Assembly: GCA_000387965.1 (NCBI GenBank)
Contig: APJZ01000003.1
Span: 1-32,000 of the forward strand
Length of the DNA: 32,000 bases
Direction of reading: 5' to 3'
Origin: Candidatus Nanobsidianus stetteri
GTDB lineage: Archaea > Nanobdellota > Nanobdellia > Nanobdellales > Nanobdellaceae
Below are positions 15,345 through 31,720 of this stretch, piece by piece. The position numbers were made by a program, and so were the translations under genes. The notes under the pieces are model-generated. The model worked only from the letters and a program-made list of their open reading frames with translations, made no database searches and was not told where the DNA came from. Position 1 is the stretch's first letter. Each line of letters starts with the position of its first letter.

Positions 15345-16361
15345 TTATATTTTATACCTTAATTTTCCGACAATACAAAATCTATCAATTAATTCAAAAT
15401 TATTGACATTATTATTTACAAAATATATTTCTGCATCTATTTTATCAAGAATATTAAATAAATTTATAATTTTATCAATATTATTTTCTTCTTTCATTTT
15501 TTTAAAACATTCTTCAGAAATTAAAACATATTCTATATTATTATACATCGCATTATTATATACTTCATCATATCCAAATGCTACCATGTTTTTTTGCATT
15601 AAATATAATATTTCTTCAATTAATTTATTTATTTCCAAAATTTCTAAACTTTTTAACGTTTCATAATATTCAGTTCTCCTAACAAATTCATATATACCAT
15701 TTATACCCCCGTTAGACACTTTATATATTTTTATATTTTTTATATTTAATTTATTCTTTACATAATCATAAAATTCTTCAGGATAAAATAATGGGCCAAT
15801 TATGCATAAAAATTTAATATTATAATCTTTTAATGCATTTAAAAATTCTGAAAATATTTTATGTAATTTTGCTTTTTCCTCCGGATCCCCTTTATTTATC
15901 TTGTAATATTCTTCCTTTATAATTTTTATCCCACTATTTATTATACCCAAAGCTATTTCATTACCATCTATAGATATTACAAAAATTTCTTCCTTTTTTC
16001 TAGAAGATTTTTCCAATATTTTTTCTTCATATTTCTTTATTTCTTCCTTTTTATATAATGTGAATTCTGTAGATATTCTTACATCAAATGTGTGATAATG
16101 CCCAATAGAATCTTTATCATTTGAATCAATTATTTTTCCAGAAATCCTTAGTGAATCTTTATATTCGGAAAATTTAATATTTTCAACTTCTATTTTTATC
16201 TTTATTTTTTTCTTTTCTTTCTCATTCTCAAATTTTAATGTTCTATAATCATATCCTTCTACTATATCCCCAACATTAACTATTTTATATAAATATAATA
16301 AATCTACCTCATCTTCTACCCTAATTTTTATTGTTTTCTTATCTATTATTTCATATTTCAT
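15345..16361 (-). CDS. pelA: Pelota (Dom34-type mRNA surveillance / ribosome rescue factor)
   Basis: 338 aa. The N-terminus IKIRVEDEVDLLYLYKIVNVGDIVEGYDYRTLKF...LRISGKII matches the Pelota N-domain. The central and C-terminal domains are eRF1-like. Confidence 0.85.
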   Translation of the reverse strand: MKYEIIDKKTIKIRVEDEVDLLYLYKIVNVGDIVEGYDYRTLKFENEKEKKKIKIKIEVENIKFSEYKDSLRISGKIIDSNDKDSIGHYHTFDVRISTEFTLYKKEEIKKYEEKILEKSSRKKEEIFVISIDGNEIALGIINSGIKIIKEEYYKINKGDPEEKAKLHKIFSEFLNALKDYNIKFLCIIGPLFYPEEFYDYVKNKLNIKNIKIYKVSNGGINGIYEFVRRTEYYETLKSLEILEINKLIEEILYLMQKNMVAFGYDEVYNNAMYNNIEYVLISEECFKKMKEENNIDKIINLFNILDKIDAEIYFVNNNVNNFELIDRFCIVGKLRYKI

Positions 16362-17341
16362 ATTAATAATAATATTAAAGAAAGAAATATCGGAGGAATA
16401 AATGGAGCCCCTTCCTTTACTTTTACTTTTATATCATTATATTCTCCCAATTTTTTTAATATATTTATTTCTTCTTTTGAAAGACCAAATCTTCCGATAA
16501 ACAATTTATTCTGAAATATATGATAAAATATTATAATAAGTATCACAGAATAATAAAAGAAAATTTCATTTAAAAAATAAAATATTAATGGTATAATTAT
16601 AATAAATAAGATAATAATAGAATTTATTAATTTATTATTTCTCTTAAATTTCAATATATACTTATTTTCATTTTCATAAATATCAAAATATTTTACCAAT
16701 ATCTCCTTATCTTCCTTCTTTATATTATTAACTTCTATCCCATCTTCTATCCAATCTCCTTCAACTAATTCGTTTACATTTCTAATAAATGTTAGTTTTT
16801 CTTCCATATCTTTTGATATATATCTAAATAGAAAATATGGTATATATACAAAAATTAGAGAAATTAATAGATAATAAATATTAAAATATAATATGAAAAG
16901 GTTGATAAAATATATAGAGATCAATATTAAGATAATGTTAATGATTGAAATATAATATTTTTTTCTATTTTCTCTATATATTTTGATAGCCTCTATATTG
17001 TGAAATATAAATCCAAATAATACTAAATAAAATAAAAATAATAACATCTTATATAGAGAAAAGAATGATAATAGAAAGAATATTGAAAAGAAAATATACA
17101 AATCTCCAATGGCTAATAATCTAAATAAATATAGTAATACAAAAAATAAAAGGATAAAATATGAAAATATAAGGTTTTCTGGGTAAATATTCTGAATGAT
17201 TAAGTATAAAAAGTAAAATACATTAAATATTAATAAAATATATATTATTATATCATCTACAGATTTATATTTTATATCCTGATATGATGAATATAGTAAT
17301 ATTATCATGTCAAATATCAATAAAGGGAGTATTTCATTCAT
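16358..17341 (-). CDS. polytopic membrane protein, A24-family prepilin/preflagellin peptidase-like (FlaK/PibD-like)
   Basis: 327 aa with many TM helices. The first candidate catalytic Asp is in YSSYQDIKYKSVDD (compare FlaK ASVQDFRSREIED). The second is in LLAIGDLYIF (GxGD-type). The C-terminal KEGAPFIPPIFLSLILLLI resembles the last FlaK/PilD helix. Its stop overlaps the Pelota ATG (ATGA). Confidence 0.6.
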   Translation of the reverse strand: MNEILPLLIFDMIILLYSSYQDIKYKSVDDIIIYILLIFNVFYFLYLIIQNIYPENLIFSYFILLFFVLLYLFRLLAIGDLYIFFSIFFLLSFFSLYKMLLFLFYLVLFGFIFHNIEAIKIYRENRKKYYISIINIILILISIYFINLFILYFNIYYLLISLIFVYIPYFLFRYISKDMEEKLTFIRNVNELVEGDWIEDGIEVNNIKKEDKEILVKYFDIYENENKYILKFKRNNKLINSIIILFIIIIPLIFYFLNEIFFYYSVILIIIFYHIFQNKLFIGRFGLSKEEINILKKLGEYNDIKVKVKEGAPFIPPIFLSLILLLI

Positions 17342-17379
17342 ATAAAAAATAAAAAATAGAATTCTTATAAATAATTATT

Positions 17380-17429
17380 ATGATGATGTGGACACAATCT
17401 GAATTAATGATGAAAGGAGTAGCTACTGA
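17380..17429 (+). ncRNA. C/D-box sRNA (2'-O-methylation guide), canonical double-guide architecture
   Basis: C AUGAUGA 17380-17386; 12-nt guide UGUGGACACAAU; D' CUGA 17399-17402; 4-nt spacer; C' AUGAUGA 17407-17413; 12-nt guide AAGGAGUAGCUA; D CUGA 17426-17429; then TTTTT. It is intergenic and overlaps no ORF. Confidence 0.8.
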
Positions 17430-17434
17430 TTTTT
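17430..17434 (+). terminator. oligo-T after the C/D sRNA
   Basis: TTTTT immediately follows box D. The same T/A run (TTTTTAAA) lies about 23-30 nt upstream of the 17460 ATG, so it may double as that gene's TATA box. Confidence 0.4.
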
Positions 17435-17459
17435 AAATTTCTATATATTAATATTTATT

Positions 17460-17816
17460 ATGCCATTAATAATACCCTCTCCAGAATATGCTAAGAGAAG
17501 AAAAATATTACAGATTGATAATAAAATTAAAAAATTGGAAAAAGAGAGAGCTGGAAAGATAACTTTAGTATTAAAAAAGGAAATAGATCTAAATAATCTC
17601 AATGAATCATTAAAATTTATATCAATGTTAAAAGAATTGGAGGAAAGAAATTTCTTTGAAGAATTATATATTGTTAAATCCGATAAAGTATTAGATTACT
17701 TAGATATAGAAAAAGGATTAGACCAAAAAAATATAGAAAAGGAAAAGTTAATAAAATTGTATGATATAATAAGTAGACTTACAAATATAATAGATAAAAT
17801 TAAAAAAATCTATTAG
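17460..17816 (+). CDS. hypothetical protein (helical, charged)
   Basis: 118 aa with an ATG start and typical cytosolic K/E/I/L composition. It overlaps the convergent coiled-coil gene by 4 nt. No family recognised. Confidence 0.5.
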   Translation: MPLIIPSPEYAKRRKILQIDNKIKKLEKERAGKITLVLKKEIDLNNLNESLKFISMLKELEERNFFEELYIVKSDKVLDYLDIEKGLDQKNIEKEKLIKLYDIISRLTNIIDKIKKIY

Positions 17817-18976
17817 TATTTATATTCTTCTTCTACTTTTATATTTTTAGATAACAATAATCTCTTTATATTCTCTATATCATTCTCTATTATTTTTATT
17901 TTTTCTATTTCATTTATTATATATTCAAAATTGGTCAAATCAATAAAATTCTCTATTTTCTTTATTCTATTCATTAAATTTTCATAATCTGATAATACAG
18001 ATTCTAATATATCTTTAGAATCATATAATTCTGCTTTTATCTTTCTAATTTCTTCTTTAATATTGTTTAGACCTTCCTCCAATTTGTTATATTTTTCATT
18101 AATCTCTTCTATTTTATCTATATCATTTACTTTTGATCTTAAATCTACAACCAAATTATTTAATTCTTCAAATAATGCATATATACTATTTAATCTATTT
18201 TCGAAATTTACATATTTGTTATATAATTCTTCATAAGCTTTAAATTGTTTTATATTTTTAATATCGTCATTTGTTAATTGTAATAAGTAATTCATATTAC
18301 TTATTTTATTATTAATTTCTGAATATTTTTCTTCATATTTCTTTTCTATCTCTTCCAATTTACTATTAACATTATATAGATCCTTTTCCTTTATCTCACT
18401 TATCATTTCAGATATTTTATTGTACTGTAATAGATCTTTAGATAAATTATCTAGTGTTTTGGATAATAAATTTGTTAGATTACTTACTTTTAGTTTTAAA
18501 TCATTAAAATCATTGATATTTGTATATGAATCTTCTATTTTATTTAACTTATCGTTTAAATCTTCTATTTTATTTCTTAAATCTTTTACACTATTTATAA
18601 CATCTTCATATTTTGTTATTTTATTACTTAAAGAATTTATATCAAATTCTAATTTATTTATTTTTGATTTTATATTTACTATAGCAGAATAATCAACAAA
18701 ATTTTTCTGATTATTTTCTAATACATCTACTCTTAGTTTTAAATCATTTAAATATCTTACTTTATCCAACAAATCTTCATTTAATATTTCTTTATAATTA
18801 TTTAATATTTTTTCTACATTTTCTAATTCTTCTTTCAAAGCTCTTAATTGATTATTAAATTCTTCCCTACTTACAAAATTATTCAAGTTTCTTTTTATTT
18901 CCAATAACCTATTGTTAAAATTTTTTACATATGAAAAAAATTCATCAATTATATCTATATCTTTATTTAAATCCAT
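17813..18976 (-). CDS. long coiled-coil protein, unknown function
   Basis: 387 aa of almost continuous heptad-like N/K/E/L/I sequence. It has no signal peptide, no NTPase motifs and no TM segments. Confidence 0.7.
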   Translation of the reverse strand: MDLNKDIDIIDEFFSYVKNFNNRLLEIKRNLNNFVSREEFNNQLRALKEELENVEKILNNYKEILNEDLLDKVRYLNDLKLRVDVLENNQKNFVDYSAIVNIKSKINKLEFDINSLSNKITKYEDVINSVKDLRNKIEDLNDKLNKIEDSYTNINDFNDLKLKVSNLTNLLSKTLDNLSKDLLQYNKISEMISEIKEKDLYNVNSKLEEIEKKYEEKYSEINNKISNMNYLLQLTNDDIKNIKQFKAYEELYNKYVNFENRLNSIYALFEELNNLVVDLRSKVNDIDKIEEINEKYNKLEEGLNNIKEEIRKIKAELYDSKDILESVLSDYENLMNRIKKIENFIDLTNFEYIINEIEKIKIIENDIENIKRLLLSKNIKVEEEYKY

Positions 18977-31671: not shown

Positions 31672-31720
31672 GTGAAGAAGCATTACGCTTCTGAAAGATG
31701 ATGAAAAAATATTTTTCTGA
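31672..31720 (+). ncRNA. candidate C/D-box sRNA with one variant C box
   Basis: C-like GUGAAGA 31672-31678; 12-nt guide AGCAUUACGCUU; D' CUGA 31691-31694; spacer AAG; C' AUGAUGA 31698-31704; 12-nt guide AAAAAUAUUUUU; D CUGA 31717-31720. The box spacing is exactly canonical. The second guide is low-complexity. Confidence 0.55.

Follow-up and report, generated by a model that had tools for sequence, protein, structure and literature searches.

A probable box C/D sRNA gene of Candidatus Nanobsidianus stetteri and its predicted targets in the A loop and helix 74 of 23S rRNA

Does a 118-bp intergenic spacer of Candidatus Nanobsidianus stetteri encode a methylation guide RNA and, if so, which ribosomal nucleotides would it address? 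The question is raised by a series of box-like motifs located in the window, i.e. the whole stretch of 32,000 nucleotides analysed here (contig C3:1-32000), which belongs to a genome of 594 kb distributed over seven contigs, with a GC content of 24% and a completeness of about 90%. A preliminary description, drawn up from the letters of this DNA, had read the motifs as an archaeal box C/D methylation guide sRNA. Canonical boxes, the presence of genes for the core proteins, conservation among relatives and covariation with 23S rRNA all supported this reading. We regard it as highly probable that positions 17380-17429 of the forward strand constitute a functional archaeal box C/D sRNA gene, with predicted transcript ends, whose product would guide methylation of the equivalents of Escherichia coli U2552 and U2438. 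The element is of a known kind and the locus is a previously unannotated RNA gene.

Architecture of the element and its genomic setting

Re-reading of the sequence confirmed every box coordinate and spacing given earlier (12 nt, 4 nt and 12 nt, followed by five T), for an RNA of 50 nt (Table 1). The terminal C and D boxes match the RUGAUGA/CUGA requirement for a k-turn, and both spacers are exactly 12 nt long, spacers of about 12 nt being the archaeal norm (PMC7229835). Across genomes, the loop between boxes D' and C' takes the forms ATTA(A), TTGA, TTAA and AAAA, while the boxes stay fixed. The guides had also been noted as richer in G+C than their surroundings, and they are: each contains 5 G or C out of 12 bases, as compared with about 19% in the surrounding 2 kb. 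With up to two mismatches allowed, the full box pattern had a single occurrence in the window, and 100 dinucleotide-preserving shuffles produced none. The predicted fold was free of self-structure (z = +0.86), and the ends of Nanoarchaeum equitans C/D sRNAs have been described as unpaired (PMC3491384).

Table 1. Features of the sRNA locus (window coordinates) and of its predicted rRNA targets (LSU numbering)
Feature	Position	Strand	Observation
A/T-rich block, likeliest sRNA promoter	17341-17357	+	TAAAAA-type box about 27 nt before A17377; candidate
CTTATAAA, candidate box A of the divergent upstream gene	17364-17371	-	conserved; about 26-27 nt from the start codon; suggested by position only
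C box AUGAUGA	17380-17386	+	read in the sequence; TGATGA unchanged across all orthologues
D' guide, 12 nt, TGTGGACACAAT	17387-17398	+	guide positions 4-11, counted upstream from D', pair with the A loop of 23S rRNA
D' box CUGA	17399-17402	+	read in the sequence; unchanged across orthologues
D'-C' loop (k-loop) ATTA, 4 nt	17403-17406	+	differs among relatives
C' box AUGAUGA	17407-17413	+	read in the sequence; seen in orthologues
D guide, 12 nt, AAGGAGTAGCTA	17414-17425	+	positions 2-10 pair with 23S helix 74
D box CUGA	17426-17429	+	read in the sequence; unchanged across orthologues
T5 run, candidate archaeal oligo-T terminator of the sRNA	17430-17434	+	putative role
TTTAAA, candidate box A of the downstream gene	17432-17437	+	28 nt before the A of ATG 17460
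118-aa ORF, no family assignment	17460-17816	+	syntenic with the sRNA across the family
D' guide target GUGUCCAC, 23S A loop	LSU 2608 (predicted methylated U)		8 contiguous pairs, guide positions 4-11
D guide target AGCUACUCC, 23S helix 74	LSU 2494 (predicted methylated U)		9 contiguous pairs, guide positions 2-10

The machinery expected for such an RNA is encoded by the same genome. The Nop5 and fibrillarin genes lie side by side at C1:24309-25618 and an L7Ae gene is present as well; in a profile search of the genome, L7Ae, Nop5 and fibrillarin were all above cut-off (PF01248, PF01798 and PF01269, respectively). Two scans for further C/D sRNAs were performed genome-wide. A looser four-box scan returned six candidates in the 594 kb and none in 20 shuffles, and a scan with relaxed boxes returned 14, against zero or one in shuffles; most guides of these 14 candidates display a Watson-Crick match of 9-11 bp to 16S, 23S or tRNA. 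Several of the approximately 14 candidates (contigs C1, C2, C4 and C7) carry terminal boxes AUGAAGA and CAGA resembling those of N. equitans. Their targets are concentrated in 23S domains IV-V and in the 3' domain of 16S, and one guide pairs over 11 bp with tRNA-Leu(CAA) at position 35. A second box C/D candidate was observed within the window at 31672-31720 (+), with a C box of the UGAAGA type, 12-nt spacers and canonical sequences at boxes C', D' and D. A 10-bp pairing links its D' guide to LSU around nt 2005, and its D box overlaps the start (about 31720) of a gene for an m5C RNA methyltransferase of the NOL1/NOP2/Sun type.

A search of the window at Rfam gathering thresholds returned four tRNAs only. 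On the sRNA itself no Rfam family reached its gathering score, the best being sR2 with 23.1 against 42 bits, and the matches below threshold (sR2, sR11, sR20 and others) rest on the boxes only. This outcome is accounted for by the curated C/D families being defined by their guides.

Guide targets and their covariation with 23S rRNA

As targets, the preliminary description had predicted perfect complements of both 12-mers. This prediction failed, such sequences being absent from rRNA, tRNA and the whole genome except for the antisense strand of the gene itself. Matches to the 12-mers with one mismatch were rejected too, as they fell on scattered sites in a chance-like manner. Shorter uninterrupted pairings designate two sites in domain V of 23S rRNA, 114 nt apart. 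In the first, position 5 of the D' guide faces the U at LSU nt 2608 (contig C2:51839), the equivalent of E. coli U2552. In the second, position 5 of the D guide faces the U at LSU nt 2494, the equivalent of U2438 and the U of the AAAAG(G/C)UACUCC strand directly 5' of GGGGAUAAC in helix 74. Alignment of LSU sequences placed the D' target in the A loop and the D target immediately 5' of the GGGG(A/G)UAAC strand. E. coli numbering was taken from, or checked against, the E. coli row of a published alignment (PMC4644070). Record L035 (NZ_AP027616.1) served solely as a bacterial-type 23S reference, its sequence not being that of canonical E. coli. This 2.9-kb record, catalogued as a plasmid of E. 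coli, consists of little more than a single 23S rRNA gene, which departs from canonical E. coli in the peptidyl-transferase region, and it is probably an assembly artefact or a contaminant.

According to Dennis et al., a target normally involves nine consecutive pairs (PMC4644070). The D guide conforms to this rule, with nine consecutive pairs at LSU 2491-2499 that cover position 5. The D' guide, with eight, falls below the strict 9-pair rule and inside the relaxed rule for double guides; the same authors describe such a 'double guide' geometry and consider that dual guides binding about 100 nt apart may stabilise one another (PMC4644070). In 1000 trials with shuffled guides, runs of 8 bp arose 140 times and runs of 9 bp 28 times, and the matches within this single genome are weakly significant. 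Two other sites considered for the D guide, SSU 704 (10 bp including two G-U pairs) and LSU 2778 (10 of 12 positions), were dropped since they were not conserved. A search for an alternative target that would engage the AAU end left unpaired in the D' guide gave nothing, AUUGUG being absent from 16S, 23S and all 41 tRNAs. It was also observed that LSU 2503 (contig C2, about 51734), the equivalent of E. coli A2448 in the GGGGAUAAC strand, is a G here and in N. equitans (GGGGGUAAC), a feature found family-wide.

Since the matches within a single genome are weak, covariation and conservation in relatives decide the case. The sRNA is identical or nearly so in all 12 genomes of the same genus, and one identical sequence is shared by Candidatus Nanopusillus acidilobi, Nanobsidianus stetteri and several Nanopusillus MAG records. 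Beyond the genus, orthologues were found in other genera of the family, in Woesearchaeota, in Undinarchaeota and in other small-genome archaea. Each guide was compared with the 23S rRNA of its own genome, the comparison leaving out the guide variants of two genomes, G005 (23S unassembled) and G011 (helix 74 part unassembled). Nucleotides 2554-2555 of the A loop are UU, UC, CC or CU depending on the genome, and are met in its D' guide by AA, GA, GG or AG, respectively. Likewise, a C/U change in helix 74 is met by G/A in the D guide, and a CCCUA variant of this helix by UAGGG. Only pairing between the guides and these sites in vivo would be expected to produce compensation of this kind.

The uridine predicted to be methylated in the A loop was homologous in 16 of the 16 genomes compared, and that of helix 74 in 13 of the 15 for which helix 74 was assembled. 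Both exceptions, Nanobdella and one Woesearchaeota MAG, carry on their A-loop sRNA a D spacer that has diverged from the site; in Nanobdella the helix-74 guide is found on a separate sRNA (L025). Pairing between the D' guide and the A loop extends over 8 bp here and over 10-11 bp in relatives. Two peculiarities of the A loop itself were seen in the region covered (C2:51830-51850, LSU 2600-2619, and the corresponding loci L027-L034 and L081-L090 of relatives). The closing pair C2551-G2557 known from other organisms is replaced by G and A in all examined Nanoarchaeota and other small-genome archaea, and the four states of 2554-2555 (UU, UC, CC and CU) coexist inside one family. These four A-loop variants and their matching guides form a clean natural covariation series against which target prediction could be calibrated where archaeal guides are short, a task in which the requirement for a perfect 12-mer would miss real targets.

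On this basis, the most likely role of the sRNA is to guide ribose methylation at two uridines close to the catalytic centre of the ribosome. Two copies of L7Ae would occupy the C/D k-turn and the C'/D' k-loop, with two fibrillarins recruited through a Nop5 dimer. Each 12-nt spacer would then pair with nascent 23S rRNA, a 2'-O-methyl group being added to the nucleotide that faces guide position 5, counted from D' or D. The D' guide would thereby modify the A-loop uridine (U2552) and the D guide the helix 74 uridine (U2438), located 114 nt further upstream, likewise in domain V. The double guide may additionally help to fold the peptidyl-transferase region.

Relation to known RNAs and activity of the short D' guide

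Its D guide and the site addressed by it make this sRNA the orthologue of N. equitans sR14, an RNA detected by RNA-seq with a coverage of 29,900 (Dennis et al. 2015, PMC4644070). The D guides of the two RNAs are identical at 11 of 12 bases, the last six bases of the D' spacer (CACAAU before CUGA) are common to both, and the N. equitans 23S rRNA carries an identical helix 74 motif. Both display the compact 12-nt/12-nt layout, a length of about 50 nt and unpaired ends. The published 23S alignment carries a label N14 in the block opening with the helix-74 stretch, a placement that holds for the block and not for a nucleotide (PMC4644070). The two RNAs differ, however, in several respects. In N. 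equitans sR14 the boxes are AUGAAGA and CAGA, the D' spacer has lost its match to the A loop, for which that organism has a guide on sR10 instead, and the gene adjoins that of tRNA-Gly (Randau 2012, PMC3491384) rather than a 118-aa gene.

Guided methylation of the U2552 equivalent has been predicted in five of seven archaea (Dennis et al., PMC4644070). With sR10 and other archaeal A-loop guides, the present sRNA shares a D' guide placing the methyl group on this nucleotide. However, sR10 pairs over 10-11 bp and its partner guide points to the C2606 equivalent, as opposed to 8 bp and U2438 here. Closer counterparts occur in Woesearchaeota, Undinarchaeota and small-genome MAGs labelled 'Methanosarcinales', which have the same guide order, both targets and the same box spacing. 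In these RNAs the D' pairing comprises 10 bp, an extra base brings some D spacers to 13 nt, and the flanks form a short terminal stem (e.g. with GC-rich ends) that is absent here. The MAGs concerned (L037, L038, L046, L048 and others), recorded as 'uncultured Methanosarcinales archaeon', are just 0.7-1.2 Mb in size and share their A-loop type and dual-guide sRNA with Woesearchaeota loci, which makes this label look doubtful. Nanobdella has the A-loop and helix-74 guides split onto two sRNAs, as has N. equitans. The combined form is probably ancestral, given that a single sRNA with both guides exists in Woesearchaeota, Undinarchaeota and other small-genome archaea. Outside the archaea, the same universally modified A-loop uridine is reached by other means: yeast snR52, a long eukaryotic snoRNA, guides Um2921, and in E. 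coli a stand-alone, protein-only enzyme, RlmE/FtsJ, makes Um2552.

Is the short D' guide active? Methylation of the U2552 equivalent by this guide is likely, and it is less certain than that of U2438 because the D' pairing comprises 8 bp, its AAU end is unpaired and a substrate of 8 bp was inactive in vitro. The guide bases adjoining D' are AAU and stand opposite GGG in the target, where two congeners have CCC at this end of the guide and pair with the A loop over 11 bp. Efficient methylation in vitro was reported with 9-10 bp and none with an 8-bp substrate (PMC7229835). A genuine C/D sRNA can thus be envisaged in which the D guide alone still directs methylation (U2438), the D' guide having decayed into a tether or chaperone contact, or into a functionless remnant. 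N. equitans sR14 offers a precedent of a kind, its homologous D' spacer having decayed further while the A-loop guide is found on sR10. We nevertheless consider such a decay improbable. The 8-nt core of the D' guide is unchanged across the genus, whereas the neighbouring loop and flanks vary; this core follows the A-loop substitutions through four states, and the pair at the methylation position is intact. Guide positions 1-3, those left unpaired here, vary freely among relatives, in agreement with the evolutionarily selected guide core described as positions 3-11 (PMC7229835), and mutual stabilisation, as proposed for dual guides about 100 nt apart, may also favour the D' pairing (PMC4644070). 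In addition, neither a second A-loop guide nor an RlmE homologue was found in the genome, in which, at a completeness of about 90%, an RlmE-type gene may be missed. The sole FtsJ-like match was rejected as RlmE, being actually an m5C methyltransferase of the NOL1/NOP2/Sun family (RsmB/NOP2-type).

Flanking signals and significance of the locus

Upstream, the sRNA is bordered by a minus-strand gene ending at 17341, with a weak, sub-threshold match to Peptidase_A24, and downstream by the 118-aa ORF, for which no Pfam or NCBIfam match was obtained. Homologues of the latter lie directly downstream of the sRNA in relatives. Further out, the flanks contain an eRF1/Pelota-like protein gene at 15345-16361 (-) and, at 17813-18976 (-), a gene for a 387-aa coiled-coil protein with many weak matches to coiled-coil families. 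A scan for promoters and terminators of the bacterial type was discarded as uninformative, the organism being an archaeon.

The sequence TTTTTAAA occupies positions 17430-17437, ahead of the next ATG at 17460. In nanoarchaea, box A has been described as TTTAAA located 26-27 nt before the start site, and T-stretch terminators have been described for N. equitans small RNAs (PMC3491384). The TTTAAA at 17432-17437 would place the start of transcription at about 17459-17460, on the A of the ATG, so that the downstream mRNA would be leaderless. An alignment of nine relatives showed this block to be conserved, the remainder of the spacer being variable, and in one relative an insertion of 5 nt moves TTTAAA away from the D box while leaving it 22-23 nt before the ATG. 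The preliminary description had proposed that the sRNA terminator doubles as the TATA box of the next gene. The TATA part of this proposal is sustained by the consensus and by the fixed distance to the ATG; the terminator part is plausible but weaker, for the run of five T is not conserved and relatives have T3-T5. The 3' flank (T5 and TTTAAA) is very likely the box A promoter of a leaderless downstream gene, and the T5 run is possibly the oligo-T terminator of the sRNA. The promoter of the sRNA itself is probably situated in the A-rich block at 17341-17357, a region too rich in A/T for specificity.

The same flank also lends itself to a different interpretation, in which the element would be the 5' leader of the mRNA of the 118-aa gene, its k-turns binding L7Ae for translational control, or would be processed from a common transcript. 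The spacing from D box to ATG is constant at 30 nt, and sRNA and gene are syntenic across the family. Moreover, in five of the 14 sRNAs of the genome the D box ends 29-35 nt before an ATG on the same strand, and most N. equitans C/D sRNAs are without clear promoters of their own and overlap mRNAs (Randau, PMC3491384). Such a leader is nevertheless quite unlikely. A consensus TTTAAA intervenes between D box and ATG at a leaderless distance and, as the indel reveals, is tied to the ATG and not to the D box, which is itself directly followed by the T5 run. Besides, the covariation of the guides with rRNA indicates selection for rRNA pairing whatever the origin of the transcript, and co-transcription would leave the guide function unchanged.

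For an independent sRNA followed by a leaderless gene, a more elaborate and rather doubtful proposal can be made, which combines two parts: the 3' flank would be a terminator/box A module shared by about five of the 14 loci, and the 8-bp A-loop guide would still make Um2552 without RlmE, aided by cooperative binding of the second guide. If this were true, termination of the sRNA and initiation of the downstream gene would be physically coupled. The five loci, at C1:130189, C2:151650, C3:17381, C4:31761 and C7:40976, have a TTTAAA- or TTTATA-like box right after the D box. As to a chance arrangement of functionless box-like motifs in A/T-rich spacer DNA, compatible with target matches that are individually non-significant within one genome and with the lack of an Rfam family above threshold, it is effectively refuted by conservation across genera and orders with compensatory guide changes, to which are added the absence of the box pattern from shuffles and the expression of the N. 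equitans orthologue, and its probability is negligible.

The finding leaves the current understanding of C/D RNPs unchanged. It adds to a minimal symbiont genome a well-supported RNA gene to which both targets can be assigned. With no RlmE-type enzyme found in Nanopusillus-like archaea, it suggests that the near-universal methylation of the A loop depends in these organisms on a single guide RNA, and the overlap with the promoter of the following gene is an example of the dense gene packing of a 0.6-Mb genome.
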